Positions 934 to 10,745 of a stretch of 11,466 nt of DNA are shown piece by piece. Location: NCBI GenBank assembly GCA_037141995.1, contig JBAXBM010000050.1, positions 1 through 11,466 of the forward strand, given 5' to 3'. The position numbers were made by a program, and so were the translations under genes. Position 1 is the stretch's first letter. Each line of letters begins with the position of its first letter. This DNA is from Candidatus Omnitrophota bacterium (GTDB taxonomy: Bacteria > Omnitrophota > Gorgyraeia > Zapsychrales > Fredricksoniimonadaceae). Below the pieces are notes generated by a model. It was not told where the DNA came from and made no database searches. It saw only the letters and a program-made list of their open reading frames with translations.

Positions 934-2130
934 ATGAATGTTACTTATTCGCATAGGGTTACAGAGATTCTTAGGAGCAGGCTTAAGGAGCCACGCAGGA
1001 CCATTCAAATTGTTCTTGGCCCACGGCAAGTGGGGAAATCAACCGCTGTTCGGGGGGTTCTAAAACAGCATGTTGGGCCGGTTGTTTATGCGTTAGCGGA
1101 TCAATCCATGCCACTAGGTTCAGAGTGGATCGCGCGTCATTGGGCTGAAGCGCGGTTGCAGGTTCAGAAAAATGAACGTGTGATCCTTGCGTTGGATGAA
1201 ATTCAGAAAGTCCCTGGTTGGACCAGTGATGTCAAGCGGCTTTGGGATGAAGATACATACAAAGAACGGGATATTCATGTTGTCCTGACGGGGTCTTCAG
1301 CGTTGACTTTGCAGAAAGGGCTTACGGAAAGTCTATTGGGGCGTTTTGAAGTGATCTGGATGCCGCATTGGTCTTTTGTAGAATGCCGGGATGCTTTCGG
1401 TTGGGGGCTTGAAGATTATTTCTTTTTCGGGGGATATCCTGGAGCAGTTGCTTATTGTCAGGATGAAGACCGTTGGCGTAATTATATGATGACGTCGATG
1501 ATCGAGCCGGTATTGACGCGTGATATCGCCCTGTTGACGACGGTACATAATCCCGCGCTATTGCGGAGATTATTGTTCCTGACGTGTGAATATGCTTCCC
1601 AGGAATTATCATACAGGAAAATCCAGGGAATATTTCAGGATGTCAGCAATACTGTGACGATCTCAGCCTATCAGCGAATGCTCGAACAGTCTTTCCTGAT
1701 AGCGGGTCTTCAGAAATGGTCGGGCGGTGCGCTTCAGAAACGAAATTCAAGCCCCAAGTGGCTGCCGTTGAACACCGGGCTTGTTACGGCTATTCAGAAT
1801 AAAAACAGAGCCGAGTTAAAGAATGATCCTGTATTCTTTGGTCGCCTCGTAGAAACGTCCATCGGGGCGCATCTTTTTAATCAGGCGATGCTTTTTAATT
1901 TTGAAGTTTATTATTGGCGTGACGGGAATATGGAGATTGACTTTATTTTCAGGAAAGGGAATAAACTGGTAGCCATTGAGGTGAAAAGTGGTTTGAATAG
2001 CGATACCAAGGCGTTTACAGTTTTTCTTAAGAAATATCCCGAGGCCAAAGTGATGCTTGTCGGAGGGCAAGGAATGCCTCTCGAAGAATTCCTAACAACA
2101 CCGATAAAAAGTTTTTTTGAGTCGATGTAG
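934..2130 (+). CDS. AAA+ superfamily ATPase, COG1373 type (AAA_14 N-terminal domain plus DUF4143 C-terminal domain)
   Basis: 398-codon ORF. Walker A GPRQVGKST, Walker B-like VILALDEIQ, and a central helical region typical of this family. The C-terminal EIDFIF...AIEVKSG resembles a D...E-x-K nuclease-fold motif. Confidence 0.88.
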   Translation: MNVTYSHRVTEILRSRLKEPRRTIQIVLGPRQVGKSTAVRGVLKQHVGPVVYALADQSMPLGSEWIARHWAEARLQVQKNERVILALDEIQKVPGWTSDVKRLWDEDTYKERDIHVVLTGSSALTLQKGLTESLLGRFEVIWMPHWSFVECRDAFGWGLEDYFFFGGYPGAVAYCQDEDRWRNYMMTSMIEPVLTRDIALLTTVHNPALLRRLLFLTCEYASQELSYRKIQGIFQDVSNTVTISAYQRMLEQSFLIAGLQKWSGGALQKRNSSPKWLPLNTGLVTAIQNKNRAELKNDPVFFGRLVETSIGAHLFNQAMLFNFEVYYWRDGNMEIDFIFRKGNKLVAIEVKSGLNSDTKAFTVFLKKYPEAKVMLVGGQGMPLEEFLTTPIKSFFESM

Positions 2131-2171: not shown

Positions 2172-2990
2172 ATGAAAATCATTCATAATCTGGTGTACTT
2201 TTTTTTATCAATAGCCCTGGCACAGTTGTTAACGGGAATTTTCATCCCAGCCTGTATCATCCTTTCTATTTATCTTCGAATGAAGAAAGGGATATCTCTT
2301 AAGGAATTCTGGAAGCATGTCCCTAACATTTATGTTTCTATGATTTCGAGTATTTACCCGTTGGTATTTCTGGGATTTCCCGCCTTGCGCCTGATGGCCA
2401 AGAATGCCGGGAAAGGCTCAGGCGGAACGGCCCCTTTTATCATCGATACGGCGAAGCTTCAGCCCGGGGATGTGATCCTGACGGGCAAGGAGCGTACGGG
2501 TGCGATACAGCTGGCGAATATCCTGTCGGCGGGGATCGAGCATTGCCAGTGGACGCATGCGTGCATTTATATCGGTGATGAAAAGGTCATTGAGGCCCAG
2601 GCCAATGGCAAGGGTGTTATTCAGACCAATCTGCGCACATTTTACCTGGACCAGGGGTATCGCCTGAAAGTTTTAAGGCATAAGTTTCTGCCGGTAGACA
2701 AGATGTCCAAAGTGCTTGCCTATTGTGCCCAGGAGAAGGATAAGAATGCTTCTTACGATACCTGGGGCGTTTCCTTTTATGTCCTTGCCGCCATGATCCC
2801 GCCCATGTTCAGCGCCTGGCTTGACGGTGATTTCGCCGAGAAGTTCTTTGATGTCAGGGATGCTTACTTTTGCTCCGAACTTATTGCCGACGCTTTCAAA
2901 GCCGCTGACTGTGCCGTATTCGGCGAAAAAAGCTGGCGTGTTAAGCCTTTGGATTTCGCCTTTAATCCGGTGTTTCATGAGGTGGTGTGA
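2172..2990 (+). CDS. Membrane-anchored permuted papain-like (NlpC/P60-related) hydrolase, YaeF/YiiX family (Pfam PF05708-like)
   Basis: 272-codon ORF with a strong SD (AAGGAG just upstream of ATG 2172). Two N-terminal hydrophobic helices. Then LQPGDVILTG...WTHACIYIGDEKVIEAQ...ASYD...YFCSELIADAF: the His precedes the Cys and the CSEL motif is present, as in the permuted YiiX family. It lies only 41 nt after the AAA+ gene. Confidence 0.78.
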   Translation: MKIIHNLVYFFLSIALAQLLTGIFIPACIILSIYLRMKKGISLKEFWKHVPNIYVSMISSIYPLVFLGFPALRLMAKNAGKGSGGTAPFIIDTAKLQPGDVILTGKERTGAIQLANILSAGIEHCQWTHACIYIGDEKVIEAQANGKGVIQTNLRTFYLDQGYRLKVLRHKFLPVDKMSKVLAYCAQEKDKNASYDTWGVSFYVLAAMIPPMFSAWLDGDFAEKFFDVRDAYFCSELIADAFKAADCAVFGEKSWRVKPLDFAFNPVFHEVV

Positions 2991-3000
2991 GGCGGTGGGG

Positions 3001-3069
3001 ATGAAATATTTTCATGGTTTTCTGCTTTTTTATGTGGCATACTTGTTTCTGGTGGGTTTTATCCAATAG
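3001..3069 (+). promoter_or_regulatory. Conserved intergenic element, copy 1 (shared with 4750-4817); candidate promoter/leader of the SPFH gene pair
   Basis: 3003-3069 aligns with 4753-4817 at roughly 83% identity (hand alignment, one 1-nt indel). It contains an AT-rich hairpin/palindrome ATGAAA-TAT-TTTCAT (3001-3015), a T-rich tract, and TGGCATACTTGTTTCT (3035-3050), a partial match to the sigma54 -24/-12 consensus TGGCAC-N5-TTGCW. There are exactly 17 nt from the end of the element to the ATG in both copies. Confidence 0.5.
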
Positions 3070-3086
3070 ACCAAAAGGACAGATAT

Positions 3087-4067
3087 ATGCAGAATGAACA
3101 GGGATTGATCTTTAAAGGGATATATGAGTTTGAAGATCCGCTTGGCGTTCTTGTTGCCGCTAAGGTTCCGTCGGTTGGTACCTTGGATCTTTATTCCGGG
3201 ACGGCTGTTTTGGTCAAGGCCAATCAGTGCGCGCTGTTTATTTATAACGGCAAGATCGCCGATATTTTGATGCAGGGCTTGCACGAGGTCAAGACCGAGA
3301 ATTTTCCGCTTTTAACGCGGCTGGCCAACTGGCAGTTTGGGTTTGAAAGTCCTCTCCGGTGTGAGGTATGGTTTTTTTCTGGCGCTGTTTACACCAACAG
3401 GCGCTGGGGAACGTCTCAGCCAGTGATCTGTGATTTTCCGGATCACGGGATAGTGCCGGTGAGGGCGTACGGGATCTTTAATGTGGTCATGCGTGATCCC
3501 AATAAATTTTTTATGACGTTGATCGGGACGCGCAATGCGTACGATATAACTGAACTTGAGGGTCTGGTTCAGGCTCAGATCACGGAAATTCTTCCTGCGG
3601 CCATGCATGTTGTCCCGTCACTTCAGGACTTAAACAAGTCACAGACGCTGGTGGCAAAAGAACTGCAGGGGTTGGTCAATAAAACGATCGAGCAATACGG
3701 CATTGAAATTGTGAGCCTGCAGGTGATCTCGATGATCCCGTCGAAAGAGATCATGGAGGCGCTCGATGCCAAGGCGTCCATGAACATCATCGGCAATAAA
3801 CAGGAATATCTGCTTTATAAGGCGGCCAACAGCTTGATCGGGAGTCATGAGGGTGGTCATGCGAAAGGTTCCAGTGATTCCATGCAGTTGATGATGGGGT
3901 TGATGCTCGGGAAAAGCCTCCTGGATGCCAAGGAAAAAGAGCACACCATGCTGCTGAAAACAGAAGAAGCGCCTCCGATGATTGAAACAAGGTCATGTTC
4001 AAAATGTAAAGCTGTTGTCAAAGCCAGCGACAAGTTTTGTGCGTCCTGCGGAACGGAGCTGAAATGA
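3087..4067 (+). CDS. SPFH/Band-7 family protein with C-terminal zinc ribbon (COG4260, Pfam Band_7_1, B. subtilis YdjI-like)
   Basis: 326-codon ORF with SD AAGGA about 8 nt upstream. N-terminal pattern GTAVLVKANQCALFIYNGKIADILMQGLHEVKTENFPLL...GFESPLRCEVWFFS...VRAYGIFNVVMRDPNKFF is typical of the YdjI-like SPFH family. The C-terminus CSKCKAVVKASDKFCASCGTEL is a CxxC...CxxC zinc ribbon. Confidence 0.85.
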   Translation: MQNEQGLIFKGIYEFEDPLGVLVAAKVPSVGTLDLYSGTAVLVKANQCALFIYNGKIADILMQGLHEVKTENFPLLTRLANWQFGFESPLRCEVWFFSGAVYTNRRWGTSQPVICDFPDHGIVPVRAYGIFNVVMRDPNKFFMTLIGTRNAYDITELEGLVQAQITEILPAAMHVVPSLQDLNKSQTLVAKELQGLVNKTIEQYGIEIVSLQVISMIPSKEIMEALDAKASMNIIGNKQEYLLYKAANSLIGSHEGGHAKGSSDSMQLMMGLMLGKSLLDAKEKEHTMLLKTEEAPPMIETRSCSKCKAVVKASDKFCASCGTELK

Positions 4068-4738
4068 ACTTTGATATCATATGCCCCAATTGTGGTGCGG
4101 CATCTTCCATTGTGGTGGGTGTTTGCCCGTATTGCAAGACGGTCTTGTCTATTAATTCTGAGAAAGGGGATCATTCTCTGTCGGCGGTGAAAGCAGCCCA
4201 TGAAGCCGGAAAAACGGACAGGTCTCTGTCACTGGTGACGGCACTTGAACAGGAAAAGCCGGAGCTGCTGGATAATATTGAATTTGTTTTGTTGTATACC
4301 AGAATTCTTTTTGAAGTGGATGGGCCTTCCAGCAAGATCAAGTCTTTGCTGACCAAAGCCCTGATCCTGGCGCCCGGTCATCCTGATGTGTTGGAATATC
4401 TGGAAGTGATCGAGGCCGAGTCCATGATGACCCGGGAGCCCAATGATGAAGGTGAACAGCGTCTCATGCGACTCATTCGCCGCTCGCCCAATAATGTTTA
4501 TGCGTTGTTTTTCCTCGGGAGTCATTTGTTTTGGGTTCAAGGAAACGGTGGTGCTGCCCTGAAGTATCTTGAGCCGTGCGTCAGGTTGCGCCCTAATTTT
4601 ATACGGGCCAAGGCCTGTTTGGCGATGATCTACAAGGAATTAAACAAGCCGGATATGGCTAAAAGATTTTTTGATGAGTGTGCCGCCAGCACATCGAGCA
4701 ATAGGACGAAGTCATTTTTCAAAAGGCTTACGGATTGA
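4064..4738 (+). CDS. Zinc-ribbon plus TPR-repeat protein
   Basis: I place the start at ATG 4064, forming an ATGA overlap with the upstream stop (TGA 4065-4067). The ORF track's 4037 start would add 9 codons overlapping the SPFH gene. N-terminus CPNCG...CPYCKTVL is a zinc ribbon. The C-terminal half has TPR-like helical repeats (ALKYLEPCVRLRPNFIRAKACLAMIYKELNKPDMAKRFFDECA). Confidence 0.8.
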   Translation: MNFDIICPNCGAASSIVVGVCPYCKTVLSINSEKGDHSLSAVKAAHEAGKTDRSLSLVTALEQEKPELLDNIEFVLLYTRILFEVDGPSSKIKSLLTKALILAPGHPDVLEYLEVIEAESMMTREPNDEGEQRLMRLIRRSPNNVYALFFLGSHLFWVQGNGGAALKYLEPCVRLRPNFIRAKACLAMIYKELNKPDMAKRFFDECAASTSSNRTKSFFKRLTD

Positions 4739-4749
4739 TGCTCTAGCGG

Positions 4750-4817
4750 CCAAAATATTTTTTGGTTTTTTGCCTTTCTATATGGCATACTTCTTTCGGG
4801 TGGATTTTATTCAATAG
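4750..4817 (+). promoter_or_regulatory. Conserved intergenic element, copy 2; candidate promoter/leader of the 703-aa gene
   Basis: Homologous to 3003-3069. Hairpin/palindrome CCAAAA-TATT-TTTTGG (4750-4765), a T-rich tract, and TGGCATACTTCTTTCG (4783-4798). There are 17 nt from the terminal CAATAG to ATG 4835, the same as copy 1. Confidence 0.5.
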
Positions 4818-4834
4818 TCTTAAGGGGGTTAAAG

Positions 4835-6946
4835 ATGTTGGAAAAACTGTATTCATTTGCCGGATTCCGGAAATTGATTTGTTGGTTGATGGCTGTTGTT
4901 TTTTTGACGGGATCAGTGATGCCCTTATATGCGCAGGGTGTGGCCGGCCTTTCATCTTCCGGGATGATGAACGTAAGCCGGACATTCACGCCGCCGATTG
5001 TCAGGGGGATGACGATTGATCCCAAGGATCCGTTTGCTTTTAAGTTTCTGATGGACCGCGGGGATGACAAGGGGTTGTCCCTGGAGGCTCGGACGGCAGT
5101 TTATGAGAAGTTGATCAAATATTTCATGGCGTCATTGGCGGTGCCGGAAGAAGATGTCTGGGTCAACCTTTCTCCCTATGAAGGGGATCGTTTGATCGCA
5201 GATAATTTTGGCATGACCGTTATGGGGCGCGACCTTCTGGAAATGGATTATGCGTTAAAGCGTGTCACGGCATCGTTATTTCATCCTGATCAGGAGCCGG
5301 GGAAGGCGTTCTGGAAGAAGGTTTATCAGGCGGCCTATGAACGTTATGGGACAACGGATGTGCCGGTCGATACGTTCAACAAGGTCTGGATCGTTCCGAG
5401 TGAGGCAAAGGTTTATGAGGACGGCAATTCTGTTATTCTGGTGAAAAGCCATCTCAAGGTCATGCTGGAGCAGGATTATTTGGCGCAGAAAAAGAATGCC
5501 GCGGTACACCCCGATAACAAGAATGATAAAGATTCCCAGTTTTCCCGCGATATTGTGCGTGAAGTCATGATTCCTATTCTTGAAAAAGAAGTCAATGACG
5601 GCGAAAATTTTGCAGTGTTACGTCAGATCACCGCATCGCTGATCCTTGCCACCTGGTATAAGAAAGCCTGGAAAGATGTTTTGTTGAACCAGGGATATAC
5701 GGATCATTCCAAGGTCAAAGGCGTTGACCAGGATCCTGCTAATAACCAGATTATCTACAACCAATATGTGGAAGCATTCAAGCAGGGCGCTGTGAATCTG
5801 GTCCGTGAAGAATATGATACGTTATCGCAGGAAATGATGCCACGGAAATATTTCTCCGGCGGTTACGGCACAAAGATGACAACAGATGATGGGCAGACAA
5901 CGTCTTTACAGCAACGATTAGAAGAAGTATCTCAGTCGCCGATGTTGGATCCAAAGAAAACGGAGTTGGTGGCGGCGTCTTTGATGCCAACGGCAAGAAC
6001 AACAGTTGCCGGGTTATTCCGACCTGTTTCACGCTTGGCGCTTCTTATTGTGTTGTGGACAGGGGCTTTCTTTCAACCAACGACAGCGGCTTTAGCAGAA
6101 TATAGAAGTACACAAAGTTTTACATATACGAACGGTTCTAGAACTCAAAAAATGGAGTTGATTGTTACTGATCCTGGCGTTGTTGTGACAGATGTGTGGG
6201 ATACTCAATCAAAGATGCTACGTGATTTCACGGATACTGTAAATACAGTAATTATAATGTCTAGGAGTAATGAGTTAGGGGCCTTAGATACACTTGGGAA
6301 GCTTGAAGCAAGAGTCAAAGCAGGGAAGGCCTCAGAAGAGGCGATATTGAAGGGGTTGGTTCAAAAGCAATTTGTTGCTTTATTAATGAATGGGAAAAAG
6401 CCTGTTGATATATCTCCGTTTCTTCAAGCGTATACTGATTGTTTGCAAGAGATAGGGCGGGTACGAAAGACTATAGACAACAATAATAAGATACGGGCTT
6501 ATAATGAAGCTGTGGAGCAGAATAATGCTAAAGCACGAGAATTCAATAAAAATCAAGCGAAGTATTCCTCTGTTGTGAAGGGGTATGTTGAGATTTTTAA
6601 TAAGAAGCAACGTGACCCAGTAGAAATGAAAAAATTATCGGTAAGCATAGGTCAACTTCTTGCGCAACCAGATTTGCCTTCAAATTTCAGGGCAACTCTT
6701 CAGCAAATTAAAACATGGATAGATAAGGCGGAGAATGTAAAGAAACCAAAGCTTGTGACAGATAAGAATCTTGGTGGTATTGATTTGAATGCCAATTCTT
6801 TTAACCTTGAGGTTGAATCGCGTAAGGAAGCCAGGGGCTTGGTGTCTCCTGTTTTGGTTGATCTTGTTGCCCTTGAAGGCTTGAGCCCACGGATATTGTC
6901 CGTCACGTCCGCCAGTGAATATGTAAAGATGTTTTCAGGAAAGTAA
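4835..6946 (+). CDS. Large secreted or membrane-associated protein of unknown function, with an N-terminal signal peptide and an internal hydrophobic segment
   Basis: 703-codon ORF with SD AAGGGGG 6-7 nt upstream. The N-terminus MLEKLYSFAGFRKLICWLMAVVFLTGSVMPLYAQG looks like a Sec signal peptide. A second signal-peptide-like segment lies at aa 384-421. The C-terminal third is Lys/Asn/Gln-rich and looks coiled-coil-like. No family recognised. Confidence 0.8.
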   Translation: MLEKLYSFAGFRKLICWLMAVVFLTGSVMPLYAQGVAGLSSSGMMNVSRTFTPPIVRGMTIDPKDPFAFKFLMDRGDDKGLSLEARTAVYEKLIKYFMASLAVPEEDVWVNLSPYEGDRLIADNFGMTVMGRDLLEMDYALKRVTASLFHPDQEPGKAFWKKVYQAAYERYGTTDVPVDTFNKVWIVPSEAKVYEDGNSVILVKSHLKVMLEQDYLAQKKNAAVHPDNKNDKDSQFSRDIVREVMIPILEKEVNDGENFAVLRQITASLILATWYKKAWKDVLLNQGYTDHSKVKGVDQDPANNQIIYNQYVEAFKQGAVNLVREEYDTLSQEMMPRKYFSGGYGTKMTTDDGQTTSLQQRLEEVSQSPMLDPKKTELVAASLMPTARTTVAGLFRPVSRLALLIVLWTGAFFQPTTAALAEYRSTQSFTYTNGSRTQKMELIVTDPGVVVTDVWDTQSKMLRDFTDTVNTVIIMSRSNELGALDTLGKLEARVKAGKASEEAILKGLVQKQFVALLMNGKKPVDISPFLQAYTDCLQEIGRVRKTIDNNNKIRAYNEAVEQNNAKAREFNKNQAKYSSVVKGYVEIFNKKQRDPVEMKKLSVSIGQLLAQPDLPSNFRATLQQIKTWIDKAENVKKPKLVTDKNLGGIDLNANSFNLEVESRKEARGLVSPVLVDLVALEGLSPRILSVTSASEYVKMFSGK

Positions 6947-7052: not shown

Positions 7053-7181
7053 GTTTAGCGCCTTGTGTGCTCGCCGCGCCGAGCGCCGAGTGCTTTTTCG
7101 CCTGGAACGAGGGGGTTTATCCCCCGAGAGAAGCCGAAAGAGTGGCGCGGTATGGCAGGCGAGAAATCGAATGCGCTAAAC
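7053..7181 (+). repeat. 129-nt structured intergenic element, copy A (candidate cis-regulatory or REP-like structured RNA; family not recognised)
   Basis: About 82% identical to 8965-9095. Five nested stems: P1 7053-7061/7173-7181, P2 7070-7075/7158-7163, P3 7076-7080/7144-7148, P4 7093-7100/7135-7142, P5 7111-7115/7121-7125. Four compensatory changes relative to copy B. Confidence 0.7.
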
Positions 7182-8960
7182 ATGCATAAAAAAACTTCGT
7201 TTCTTCCCATGTATCTTGATGAGATGGCGGCTCGGGGGTGGGGTGAGCTGGACGTTATTATCATCAGCGGCGATGCGTATGTGGATCATCCTTCCTACGG
7301 CACGGCATTGATCGGGCGTCTCCTGGAAAGCAAGGGTTATCGCGTGGGTATTATCGCCCAGCCGGACTGGCGGTCGCTGGATGATTTTACGCGCCTGGGG
7401 CGTCCGCGTTTGTGCGTTTGTGTGACGGCGGGCAATGTGGATTCCATGGTTGCCCATTACACGGCCAACAAGCGGCGGCGGCAGGGGGATGATTTTGCGC
7501 CGGGCGGCAAGGACGGCTTGAGGCCGGATCGTGCGGCGATTGTGTATGCTAATCGTGCTAAGGCGGCATTCAAGGGCCTGCCGGTGATCCTGGGCGGTGT
7601 TGAGGCCAGCATGCGGCGCTTGGCGCATTACGATTACTGGGATGATGCGGTGCGGCGTTCGGTATTGATCGATGCCAAGGCGGACATGATCATTTACGGC
7701 ATGGCAGAGCGGCCTGTTGTGGAAGTGATGGCGCGGCTGGCGCAGGGTGAGGCGATCGCAGCGATCCGTGATGTGCGCGGCACCGTGGTGCGTGTGAAGC
7801 CGGCGGAATTTCCTGCGGGGACGATAGAATTGCCGTCGTTTGAAGATATCAGCCGTGACCCTGAAATTTTTAACCAGGCATTTCGCCTGGCTTATGCGGA
7901 AATGTCGCCGGAAGACGGCAAGCCTTTGGCCCAGCGGCATGCGGATCAGTGTGTGCTGCAATTGCCCCCGGCATTGCCATTGACACCTCAAGAACTTGAC
8001 GCCGGTTATGATCTGGCGTATGCGCGCACATGGCATCCGTCGTATGATGCCTTGGGCGGCGTGAAGGGTTTAGAGACAGTGCGCTGGTCGATCACAGCGG
8101 TGCGCGGCTGTCCCGGGGAGTGTCATTTTTGCGGGATCACGTTCCATCAGGGGCGGATCGTGCAGAGCCGGAGCGTGGCGTCCATTGTGCGGGAAGCTGA
8201 AGGCCTCGCGCGCGACCCGGCGTTTCGGGGGACGATTCAGGATGTGGGCGGGCCGACAGCGAATTTATACGGTGCCAGTTGTGCCAATTGGAATAAAGGC
8301 CGGGTATGCCGCGGCAAGCAGTGCCTGATGCCATCGAAATGCCCGTCGCTGGATCTGGGGTGCCGGGAAGCGGTTTCCTTGTATGAAGCGATACGGCGTG
8401 TGCCGGGCATAAAACATATGTTCGTGCAGAGCGGTTTGAGGTATGATCTCTTGCTCGAACCGGCGGCGCTCGATTATTTCAAGGTGTTATGCCGTTATCA
8501 TGTCAGCGGGCAGATGAAGGTGGCTCCCGAGCATACATCCGACGAGGTTTTAGCGCTCATGAACAAGCCGCCCTATGCGCGGTATGAGGCTTTTGTCCGG
8601 CTTTTCAATGAGATCAATGCGGGGCTTGGCAAGAAGCAGTTTCTGGTGAATTATTTTGTCAGCGCGCATCCCGGGGCAGGGCTTAAGGAAGCGTTTGATT
8701 GTGCGTCAATGCTTTTATCCCGCGGGATGCATCCGGAACAGGTGCAAGATTTTCTGCCTTTACCCATGACGGTATCGGCGTGCATGTATCACACGGGGAA
8801 GCATCCTCTGACGGGCAAGAGTGTTTATGTGCCGCGGAAAGACAATGAACGCGCGATGCAGAGGGCCCTTGTGCAGTCGCAGAATCCTGGTAATGCGCCC
8901 TTGATTGACAAGGCGCTTAATATTTTAGGTAAACAGGGAGTTAAGAAAAAATTTAAATAA
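7182..8960 (+). CDS. ygiQ: YgiQ-family radical SAM protein (UPF0313)
   Basis: The N-terminus KTSFLPMYLDEMAARGWGELDVIIISGDAYVDHPSYGTALIGRLLESKGYRVGIIAQPDW closely parallels E. coli YgiQ (FLPMSREEMDQLGW...VTGDAYVDHPSFG...RVGIIAQPDW). Radical SAM CxxxCxxC motif CPGECHFC at 8109-8132. The start is uncertain. The ORF track begins at 7065, but codons 1-39 are a read-through of the repeat element. ATG 7182 is the first Met after it, and ATG 7152 is an alternative. Confidence 0.88.
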   Translation: MHKKTSFLPMYLDEMAARGWGELDVIIISGDAYVDHPSYGTALIGRLLESKGYRVGIIAQPDWRSLDDFTRLGRPRLCVCVTAGNVDSMVAHYTANKRRRQGDDFAPGGKDGLRPDRAAIVYANRAKAAFKGLPVILGGVEASMRRLAHYDYWDDAVRRSVLIDAKADMIIYGMAERPVVEVMARLAQGEAIAAIRDVRGTVVRVKPAEFPAGTIELPSFEDISRDPEIFNQAFRLAYAEMSPEDGKPLAQRHADQCVLQLPPALPLTPQELDAGYDLAYARTWHPSYDALGGVKGLETVRWSITAVRGCPGECHFCGITFHQGRIVQSRSVASIVREAEGLARDPAFRGTIQDVGGPTANLYGASCANWNKGRVCRGKQCLMPSKCPSLDLGCREAVSLYEAIRRVPGIKHMFVQSGLRYDLLLEPAALDYFKVLCRYHVSGQMKVAPEHTSDEVLALMNKPPYARYEAFVRLFNEINAGLGKKQFLVNYFVSAHPGAGLKEAFDCASMLLSRGMHPEQVQDFLPLPMTVSACMYHTGKHPLTGKSVYVPRKDNERAMQRALVQSQNPGNAPLIDKALNILGKQGVKKKFK

Positions 8961-8964
8961 TGGT

Positions 8965-9095
8965 ATTCAGCGCCCTGTGTTTTCGCCGCGCCAAGCGCCG
9001 AGTGCCTTTCCGCCTGGAACGAGGGGGCCGCAGCCCCCGAGAGAAGCCGGAAGGGTGGCGCGATAAGGCAGGCGAAAAGATCTGATGCGCTGAAC
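8965..9095 (+). repeat. 129-131-nt structured intergenic element, copy B
   Basis: Same architecture as copy A: P1 8966-8973/9087-9094, P2 8980-8987/9071-9078, P3 8988-8992/9057-9061, P4 9005-9012/9048-9055, P5 9023-9027/9034-9038. It starts 5 nt after the ygiQ stop and ends 31 nt before the ABC-F start. Confidence 0.7.
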
Positions 9096-9125: not shown

Positions 9126-10745
9126 ATGATCACGGTTAATAATGTTACGCTTCAATATGGCCAGCGGAAACTTTTTTCCGGTGTTAATATCAGTTTCTCC
9201 CAGGGTAATTGCTACGGCCTTATCGGCGCCAATGGATCCGGCAAATCAACGTTCCTGAAGATCTTGTCCGGCGAGATTGACTCAACCGAAGGTACAGTGG
9301 CCATTGATCCCGGCAAGCGCATGTCGGTGTTGCGCCAGGATCATTTTGCGTTTGATGAGCAGACGGTTTTGACAACGGTCATCATGGGGCACAAGCGGCT
9401 TTTTGATGTCATGCTGGAAAAAGACGCCATTTATGCCAAGGCAGATTTTACTGATGCCGACGGCATGCGTGTTTCCGAGCTGGAAGCCGAGTTTGCGGAA
9501 ATGGACGGGTGGAACGCGGAATCTGATGCCGGCAAACTCTTGGCGGAACTGGGGATCGCGACCTCAGCGCACACCCAGCAGATGAAACAGCTCGAGGGCG
9601 GCGACAAGGTGCGTGTGCTGTTGGCCCAGGCGCTTTTTGGCAATCCCGATATCCTTCTTCTCGACGAGCCGACGAACCATCTTGATGTCGAGACCTGCAT
9701 GTGGCTGGAGGAATTTCTTTCCCGTTTCGAGAATACGGCGATCGTTGTTTCCCATGACCGCCATTTTCTCGACAATGTGTGCACGCATATCGCCGACATT
9801 GATTTCGGGAAGGTTAAGATTTACTCCGGCAATTATACGTTCTGGTCGGAATCAAGCCGCCTCGCCGCAAAGCAGCGTAGTGAAGAGAATAAGAAGGTCG
9901 AGGACCGCCGCAAGGAATTGCAGGATTTCATCGCACGCTTCAGTTCCAATTTGTCAAAGTCGCGTCAGGCAACAAGCCGTAAAAAGATCCTCGAGAAACT
10001 TGTCATCGAGGACATTGAACCGTCTTCGCGTAAATATCCGTATGTGCATTTTGAGCAGGAACGCGAGGCCGGCAACGACCTCTTGGGGGTGGATGATCTG
10101 GCCAAATCTTTGGACGGGCAGGTCATGTTCAAGAAGTTATCATTTACGATTGAAAAGGGAGACAAGGTGGCTTTTGTGGGATCCAATGATCTGATCAAGA
10201 CGACACTTTTTCAGATTCTCATGGGCGAACTTCCGGCGGATAAAGGGACGTTCAAGTGGGGCTTCTCGACAAAGCGCGCCTATTTCCCGAAAGACAATGC
10301 CGAATATTTCAAGTCTGATCTCAGTGTCGTTGACTGGCTGAGGCAGTATTCCGAAGAGAAGGCCGAAGTTTTTATCCGCGGCTTTTTAGGCAAGATGCTT
10401 TTTACCGGTGAAGAATCCCAGAAACCGGCCAAGGTCCTTTCAGGCGGCGAGAAAGTCCGCTGTATGCTTTCACGCATGATGCTCATGAAGCCCAACGTTG
10501 TGATTCTCGACGAGCCGACCAGTCACCTGGATCTCGAGTCGATCACCGCACTCAATGAGGGGCTGAAGCGCTTTAAGGGCACGATCCTTTTCTCGTCGCA
10601 TGACCATGAGCTGGTGCAGACCGTCGCCAACCGCATCATCGAGATCACGCCGGCGGGCATGATCGACCGTACGGGTACAACGTTTGATGATTATCTGTCC
10701 GATGAACGCGTCAAAACCCTGCGGGCAGAGTTTGCCAGGGTTTAA
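9126..10745 (+). CDS. ybiT: ABC-F family ATPase with two nucleotide-binding domains, YbiT-like
   Basis: 539-codon ORF with SD GAGAGG about 8 nt upstream. NBD1 has Walker A GANGSGKST (9225-9251) and Walker B ILLLDEPTNHLD. A Lys/Arg-rich inter-domain linker (SRFSSNLSKSRQATSRKK) follows. NBD2 has signature LSGGEKVR and Walker B VVILDEPTSHLD. Overall collinear with E. coli YbiT (NVT.Q.G...YGLIGANGSGKSTF.KIL.G...LRQD.FAF.E.TVL.TVIMGHK). Confidence 0.88.
   Translation: MITVNNVTLQYGQRKLFSGVNISFSQGNCYGLIGANGSGKSTFLKILSGEIDSTEGTVAIDPGKRMSVLRQDHFAFDEQTVLTTVIMGHKRLFDVMLEKDAIYAKADFTDADGMRVSELEAEFAEMDGWNAESDAGKLLAELGIATSAHTQQMKQLEGGDKVRVLLAQALFGNPDILLLDEPTNHLDVETCMWLEEFLSRFENTAIVVSHDRHFLDNVCTHIADIDFGKVKIYSGNYTFWSESSRLAAKQRSEENKKVEDRRKELQDFIARFSSNLSKSRQATSRKKILEKLVIEDIEPSSRKYPYVHFEQEREAGNDLLGVDDLAKSLDGQVMFKKLSFTIEKGDKVAFVGSNDLIKTTLFQILMGELPADKGTFKWGFSTKRAYFPKDNAEYFKSDLSVVDWLRQYSEEKAEVFIRGFLGKMLFTGEESQKPAKVLSGGEKVRCMLSRMMLMKPNVVILDEPTSHLDLESITALNEGLKRFKGTILFSSHDHELVQTVANRIIEITPAGMIDRTGTTFDDYLSDERVKTLRAEFARV

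Follow-up and report, generated by a model that had tools for sequence, protein, structure and literature searches.

Promoters of the extended -10 class, known from E. coli galP1 and from many Gram-positive bacteria, and UP elements of the rrnB P1 type, the proximal subsite of which occupies positions -45 to -37 (PMC2613000), are the described systems closest to the element reported here. A short inverted repeat near a gene start can also be compared with intrinsic (Rho-independent) terminators, CRP/FNR-type class II activator sites, and the -24/-12 promoters of sigma-54. A literature search turned up no paper on Omnitrophota promoters. We analyzed an 11,466-nt stretch of DNA (the window), which is a complete contig of a Candidatus Omnitrophota MAG (locus tags WCI27_) and in which an AT-rich dyad recurs upstream of two genes. 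The dyads lie in an ~80-nt cassette copied between neighbouring intergenic regions, through which an SPFH/TPR membrane operon and a probably secreted protein of an Omnitrophota-specific family would share a promoter.

The large genes of the contig are on the + strand, except the last one; the coordinates of the features are collected in Table 1. The N-terminus of the 703-aa protein resembles a signal peptide. The protein also contains a conserved ~330-aa domain found in >2,700 proteins, of which nearly all lack an annotation and many bear the name Omnitrophota/Omnitrophica; their C-terminal parts vary, and they have no Pfam domain. The syntenic counterpart of the 703-aa protein in a related genome (L017; gene 4051-6570) is 47% identical, as against 86% for the adjoining YgiQ, suggesting that the family is fast-evolving and secreted.

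Table 1. Features of the window and of comparison loci (positions refer to the window unless a locus is named).
Feature	Position	Strand	Remarks
AAA_14/DUF4143 ATPase gene	934-2130	+	
C92/NlpC-type amidase gene	2172-2990	+	stop TGA 2988-2990
Cassette, copy 1	2991-3086	+	between amidase stop (2990) and SPFH start (3087)
Dyad, copy 1: ATGAAA-TAT-TTTCAT	3001-3015	.	abuts/overlaps -35 box
-35-like box ATGGTT(T), copy 1	3014-3020	+	18-nt spacer
Extended -10, copy 1: TGTGG + CATACT	3033-3043	+	lineage pattern
Shine-Dalgarno AAGGA, copy 1	3075-3079	+	7 nt before ATG 3087
SPFH (Band_7_1) protein gene, with zinc ribbon	3087-4067	+	ATG 3087
TPR protein gene	4037-4738	+	overlaps SPFH gene; stop TGA 4736-4738
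Cassette, copy 2	4739-4834	+	between TPR stop (4738) and 703-aa start (4835)
Dyad, copy 2: CCAAAA-TATT-TTTTGG	4750-4765	.	right arm overlaps -35 box
-35-like box TTGGTT(T), copy 2	4762-4768	+	18 nt (as TGGTTT, 17 nt) upstream of -10 hexamer
Extended -10, copy 2: TATGG + CATACT	4781-4791	+	lineage pattern TRTGn-YATAYT in 12 promoters
Predicted transcription start, copy 2	4796-4800	+	from promoter geometry, ~7 nt past -10
Shine-Dalgarno AAGGGGG, copy 2	4822-4828	+	6 nt before ATG 4835
703-aa protein gene	4835-6946	+	ATG 4835; very large Omnitrophota-specific family, no Pfam domains
YgiQ radical-SAM protein gene	7182-8960		
ABC-F ATPase gene	9126-10745		
SPFH promoter, L030			CTGGCG-18-TATGG-TATACT
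SPFH promoter, L029			TTGGCG-18-CATGT-TATACT
SPFH promoter, L031			TTGGCT-18-TATGC-TATATT
Dyad CGATAA-TT-TTATCG, L029	2655-2700		after TPR-orthologue stop
Dyad AAAATA-TCAT-TATTTT, L009	1840-1860		after TPR-orthologue stop
Dyad GAAAA-CATTA-TTTTC, L010	6010-6030		after TPR-orthologue stop

The two intergenic spacers are each exactly 96 nt long and align gap-free (MAFFT) at an offset of 1748 nt, with an identity of 80% over 69 nt and 85% over 55 nt. Their homology is detectable from ~3004/4752, at the shared core AAATATTTT, to the ribosome-binding site, and upstream of 3004 only 5 of 13 positions match. An nhmmer profile of the cassette matched copy 2 at E=6.5e-15, and E was ~1e-14 for each of three copies, the third being that of L017 described below. 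The three-copy profile revealed no further copy in ~200 kb of related Omnitrophota loci, and the exact pattern TGGCATACTTNTTTCNGGTGG was absent from IMG/VR and matched GTDB species genomes only five times, by chance and in coding sequence (Bacteroidota, Bacillaceae). Local similarity of the two copies to orthologue flanks was marginal and failed correction for 12 tests (best uncorrected values: p~0.02 for copy 1 against the L029 TPR flank, p~0.04 for copy 1 against the L030 upstream region). The similarity between copies 1 and 2 (80% over ~75 nt, leader included) is far above that of copy 1 to orthologous SPFH promoters, suggesting a copy or conversion event within the lineage. Such an event between the two intergenic regions would have put both transcription units under the same promoter; its direction is one that we infer. 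Alignment and profile search thus bear out the claim of the initial annotation that the 703-aa gene stands under the same signal as the SPFH/TPR pair, as the same promoter and leader cassette is found ahead of both.

Copy 2 probably provides the 703-aa gene with its promoter, of the sigma-70-family extended -10 type, and with a short leader, and copy 1 is a paralogous cassette copy predicted to drive the SPFH/TPR operon. A predicted extended -10 promoter is present in both copies, in keeping with the earlier proposal that the element includes a promoter for the downstream gene. The string TGGTTTT is invariant across copies 1 and 2 and the L017 copy; the -35 boxes ATGGTT and TTGGTT agree with TTGACA at 2-3 of 6 positions, and the spacer of 18 nt is T-rich. 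Copies 1 and 2 were missed by a generic promoter scan (matches at 3 of 6 positions for the -35, 4 of 6 for the -10). All three copies of the cassette sit directly upstream of genes, and each has the TG one base before a hexamer with A2 and T6 that marks an extended -10 element. Within this motif the sole difference between copies 1 and 2 is G3034/A4782, at the R of TRTG. The string TGGCAT, which begins 19 nt past the right arm of the dyad in copy 1 and 17 nt past it in copy 2 and had been taken for a core signal in its own right, is the end of the predicted TRTGn and the start of the predicted -10 hexamer CATACT, and we do not treat it as a separate signal.

The leader of the 703-aa mRNA would be ~37 nt long and unstructured, with a Shine-Dalgarno sequence. 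Predicted leaders fold no better than shuffles (z = +0.1 to +0.9), and on these values a small leader hairpin, UGGRU-UUU-AUYCA, was dropped. The whole intergenic regions were likewise without significant RNA structure (z = -0.4 and -0.3), and no Rfam family matched the window at E<=1, with no more than noise on 2980-3100 at E<=10.

For comparison we used SPFH orthologue loci from metagenomes, together with relatives reached via YgiQ and SPFH homologues. Related Omnitrophota promoters, of SPFH orthologues and of other genes, have the form TTGxxx-16/18-TRTGn-TATAxT, into which copy 1 (TTATGTGGCATACT) and copy 2 (CTATATGGCATACT) fit. Gene fronts of the relatives include TTGACC-17-(TGTGT)TATATT, TAGACA-17-(ATGT)TATACT, TTGACA-16-(TGTGT)TAAATT, and TCGACA-16-TATAAT. 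The closest SPFH orthologues (69-74% identity) have promoters in L030, L029, and L031, all with an 18-nt spacer, and the TTGGYK -35 box recurs in all three. The CATACT hexamer is used with a canonical TTGACG -35 (17-nt spacer) ahead of YgiQ in L025. This YgiQ promoter of L025 (9955-10003) lies only 8 nt before the annotated ATG, which suggests a near-leaderless or leaderless YgiQ mRNA in that relative.

The third copy of the cassette is informative about which of its parts are conserved. In L017 the promoter core is found ahead of an 839-aa member of the 703-aa family, the gene of which lies directly upstream of YgiQ in the same synteny as in the window. This copy (ATGGTTTTTTCTTATATATATGGCATACTTGTGCCTGTTGGATTT) keeps the -35 TGGTTTT, the T-rich spacer, TATGGCATACTT (TATGG-CATACT), and the downstream TGGATTT, and it has no co-directional upstream gene, its neighbour being a divergent ArsR-type gene. 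Because the T-rich tract is kept with nothing upstream to terminate, it would belong to the promoter and not to a terminator tail. Upstream of the -35, where the dyad would be, L017 has the GC-rich ACACAGGCCTGCAGGA (38% A+T), and no AT-rich dyad was found in this copy, the best inverted repeat being 3 bp with a loop and 4 bp without. Conservation of this promoter therefore does not extend to the AT-rich dyad, and the A+T-rich tract is not essential to it.

As for the dyads themselves, the description in the initial annotation is exact: both palindromes, the T-rich tracts after them, and their distance of at most 12 nt from the stop were recovered, the dyads beginning ~10-12 nt past it. With the -35 hexamer numbered -35 to -30, they span about -49 to -34, and the core (copy 2: 4753-4761) falls at about -45 to -37. 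In 11 of 12 lineage promoters A+T makes up 62-88% of the 16 nt preceding the -35, compared with 44-60% for the loci overall; copies 1 and 2 have 69-75% A+T over these proximal 16 nt, and the distal position is G-rich. In the YgiQ promoter, AATATTTCA, which is similar to ATATTTTCA in copy 1, abuts the -35 both in the window and in L017, and a T-run is present directly 5' of the -35 in 5/5 SPFH-type promoters. The dyad is best read as an UP-like A+T-rich tract, with a symmetry that is incidental or at most weakly selected, and we would give this reading about an even chance. The tract, just upstream of the -35, would lie at the site contacted by the RNA polymerase alpha C-terminal domain, a contact with the dyad core that we infer, and would act, if at all, by helping a promoter with a poor -35. 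The palindromic look would come largely from an A-run followed by a T-run, which, being self-complementary by construction, supply 3-4 of the 6 "pairs"; the outer complementary bases (2-3) are non-homologous between the copies.

The differences between the two dyads had originally been taken as covariation of the arms, each change being mirrored in the opposite arm. The mirrored changes show only when the arms are compared by rank, and they are absent column by column. In ungapped and in optimal gapped alignments, the left arms can be put in register, and the right arms lie 1-2 nt out of register. When the 44 nt from the stop to TGGCAT are aligned globally, the optimum has one gap on each side of the shared core. 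Copy 1 has its right arm at 3010-3015; in copy-1 numbering the right arm of copy 2 would be 3011-3017. The invariant GG of the TGGTTT box supplies the outer G4764/G4765 of copy 2; their counterparts in copy 1, G3016/G3017, are unpaired and outside the copy-1 hairpin, and the outer left-arm bases (ATG and CCA) lie outside the homologous block. Since the right arms and the outer bases are not homologous columns, the copies contain two dyads in slightly shifted registers and not three compensatory substitutions. Apparent covariation between only two AT-rich copies is, as a caution, no evidence of structure.

Of the alternatives to an UP-like tract, a weak terminator combined with the promoter survives best, although we consider it rather unlikely. 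The dyad would then form an A-U-rich hairpin, and the U-rich stretch, which is also the -35 and the spacer, would bring about partial termination or a protective 3' end. The dyads lie shortly after the stop and directly before the -35, and in L031 a canonical terminator occupies exactly the place of the copy-1 dyad before the SPFH promoter, a positional analogy. Canonical terminators follow the TPR gene in L008, L010/11, L029, and L031, and none does so in the window, where the dyads are therefore the only hairpins available for termination; moreover, such dyads are uncommon by chance, and that of copy 2 extends to 8 bp with two G-U pairs, followed by U6. The energies argue against this reading. 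The hairpin of copy 1 has only -1.0 to -1.7 kcal/mol, with a U-run that begins 2 nt past the stem, and that of copy 2 has -3.7 to -4.3 kcal/mol (-6.4 kcal/mol with the two G-U pairs), whereas the terminators after the orthologous TPR gene have -15.2 (L010) and -17.6 (L008) kcal/mol, and GC-rich hairpins with T-runs follow TPR in L029 and L031 as well. At -1 to -4 kcal/mol against -15 to -18 kcal/mol, the window hairpins are roughly an order of magnitude weaker than the terminators of the clade, and the weak terminator hairpin of the initial annotation is not supported by this comparison. The dyads are absent from the list of the terminator scan, and after-stop dyads do not recur significantly in TPR orthologues once composition is controlled for. 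The T-tracts that had been read as terminator U-tracts are probably the -35 box and spacer, and they are retained in L017, which has no co-directional upstream gene and nothing to terminate.

The L031 junction (5895-5945), where a predicted canonical terminator (GACGGCTC...GAGCCGTC + T6) runs straight into the SPFH -35 TTGGCT, is a true compact terminator-promoter layout in a relative. In the window, a G+C-rich hairpin at 762-783, after the gene at 8-721 (GGGCGGGC-CCATGTGT-CCGCCC, -16.7 kcal/mol), precedes an A-run that gives way to T-rich sequence, and exemplifies a stable terminator-type hairpin in the contig.

We next consider whether the symmetry is more than chance. In shuffles of the 30 nt after the stop, a perfect inverted repeat of 6 bp or more with a loop of 3-8 arose in 0.1-0.9% of cases for copy 1 and in 1-5% for copy 2; the frequency of such a repeat in real Omnitrophota intergenic DNA was 6% of 30-nt windows (409/6872), and it was present in 4/69 of the other after-stop segments. 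Each dyad is thus uncommon by chance, and may reflect a weak hairpin function or selection for symmetry. The two are not independent, because their core is common by descent; both copies complete a 6-bp dyad with different outer bases, which could be a sign of selection for symmetry. Dyads are also found after the stop of TPR orthologues in L029, L009, and L010 (Table 1), 0-5 nt past it, with a separate canonical terminator following in L029 and L010. Counted raw, after-stop dyads of at least 5 bp occur in 4/6 TPR orthologues, compared with 7/69 in the background; with composition control and the discovery window excluded, this enrichment is not significant (Fisher p 0.024-0.066), and the L031 TPR flank is negative for an after-stop dyad (p 0.58). 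It is quite unlikely that the stop-proximal dyad is itself under selection, that is, that Omnitrophota lineages keep a 5-6-bp AT-rich repeat with unrelated arms 0-11 nt past the TPR stop and that copy 1 completed its own independently. If true, the selected dyad would be a structural signal apart from canonical terminators, either an RNA 3'-end or processing mark or a protein site read by shape.

A role as operator or activator site, in which a dimeric protein would bind the dyad, in a class II-like manner or as a repressor overlapping the -35, and would co-regulate the SPFH/TPR operon and the 703-aa gene, is in our view very unlikely. The dyad centres, at about -42 (copy 1) and -40.5 (copy 2), put the symmetry of both copies at a class II-like position; the poor -35 could require an activator, and the YgiQ promoter too has TGAA-TAT-TTCA abutting its -35. 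However, the half-sites ATGAAA and CCAAAA differ at 3 of 6 positions, the spacing is 3 nt in one and 4 nt in the other, and the centres differ by 1.5 nt; one homodimer is unlikely to tolerate these differences, as the same half-site at the same spacing would be expected. Only AAA/TTT is common to both copies, which is little information, and no regulator gene is adjacent within the window. Together with the third copy, which has no dyad, the mismatched half-sites and spacing speak against the dimeric-regulator site shared by both genes that had been offered as a second reading of the element.

A far better candidate for a strong operator-like site than either dyad is found at 851-878, a perfect palindrome with 12-bp arms (AAATTTGCTAAT-TAGG-ATTAGCAAATTT) that overlaps the -10 (TAAATT, 850-855) and the predicted start of the AAA_14/DUF4143 promoter TTGACA(828)-16-TGT-TAAATT.

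A sigma-54 promoter, with TGGCAT as the -24 box, TTTC as the -12 box, and the dyad as an IHF or enhancer-related site, is scarcely credible and was rejected: TGGCAT-N5-TTTC resembles TGGCAC-N5-TTGC and occurs with 0 mismatches only at the two copies, but the GC at -12 is missing in both (GG-N10-TC) and out of register in L017 (TGGCAT-ACTTG-TGCC, one position early), and the invariant positions, TRTGn and CATACT, fit a -10 element, the sigma-70-type promoters of relatives having TGT or TGC for TGG.

A second duplicated upstream element, which we judge to be of more interest than the AT-rich dyad, was observed in the 5' leaders of YgiQ and ABC-F (7054-7181 and 8966-9095). The two copies are G+C-rich and ~86-89% identical, and each folds as one long imperfect hairpin (MFE -60 and -69 kcal/mol; z = -3.8 and -4.9) that 0/200 shuffles matched in stability. 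Of the 39 pairs that they have in common, four show compensatory double changes and not one is broken, and Rfam gave no match to the element. Four related genomes lack the element, YgiQ and ABC-F overlapping there by 14 nt, and the 240-nt YgiQ-ABC-F gap of L025 is likewise without it. Its absence in these five genomes points to both copies being insertions in the lineage. The element could be either a structured mobile or MITE-like repeat, or a newly acquired cis-regulatory RNA.

The dyad in itself matters little: it would form part of a normal extended -10 promoter with an A+T-rich tract, in a phylum from which no characterised promoters are known. The wider result is a first sketch of promoter architecture in this lineage, TTGxxx-16/18-TRTGn-YATAYT with an A+T-rich tract upstream.

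Set beside the known systems, the cassette resembles a sigma-54 -24/-12 promoter in that TGGCAT is close to the -24 TGGCAC, and differs from it in having no GC at -12. It recalls CRP/FNR-type class II activator sites, which are centred near -41.5, in that the dyad centre is close to this position and the dyad overlaps the -35; unlike them, it has no common half-site beyond AAA/TTT and a variable spacing, and it is not conserved in L017. As in an intrinsic terminator, an inverted repeat comes soon after a stop codon and is followed by T-rich sequence, but the stem is almost all A-T, at -1 to -4 kcal/mol, and the T-tract is kept in L017 and would belong to the promoter. The likeness to an UP element of the rrnB P1 type lies in the A+T-rich core, which falls exactly at the proximal subsite, whereas the distal subsite is missing (this stretch is G-rich and borders on the coding end), the sequence differs from the E. 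coli consensus, and the tract is missing in the L017 copy. From extended -10 promoters of the galP1 type the predicted promoter of the cassette differs in a hexamer that starts with C (CATACT) and in a TTGGTT-like -35. It shares with this class the TRTGn directly 5' of a hexamer that keeps A2 and T6, as in galP1 and many Gram-positive promoters, together with a poor -35, a spacer of 17-18 nt, and a site 40-45 nt before the start codon.
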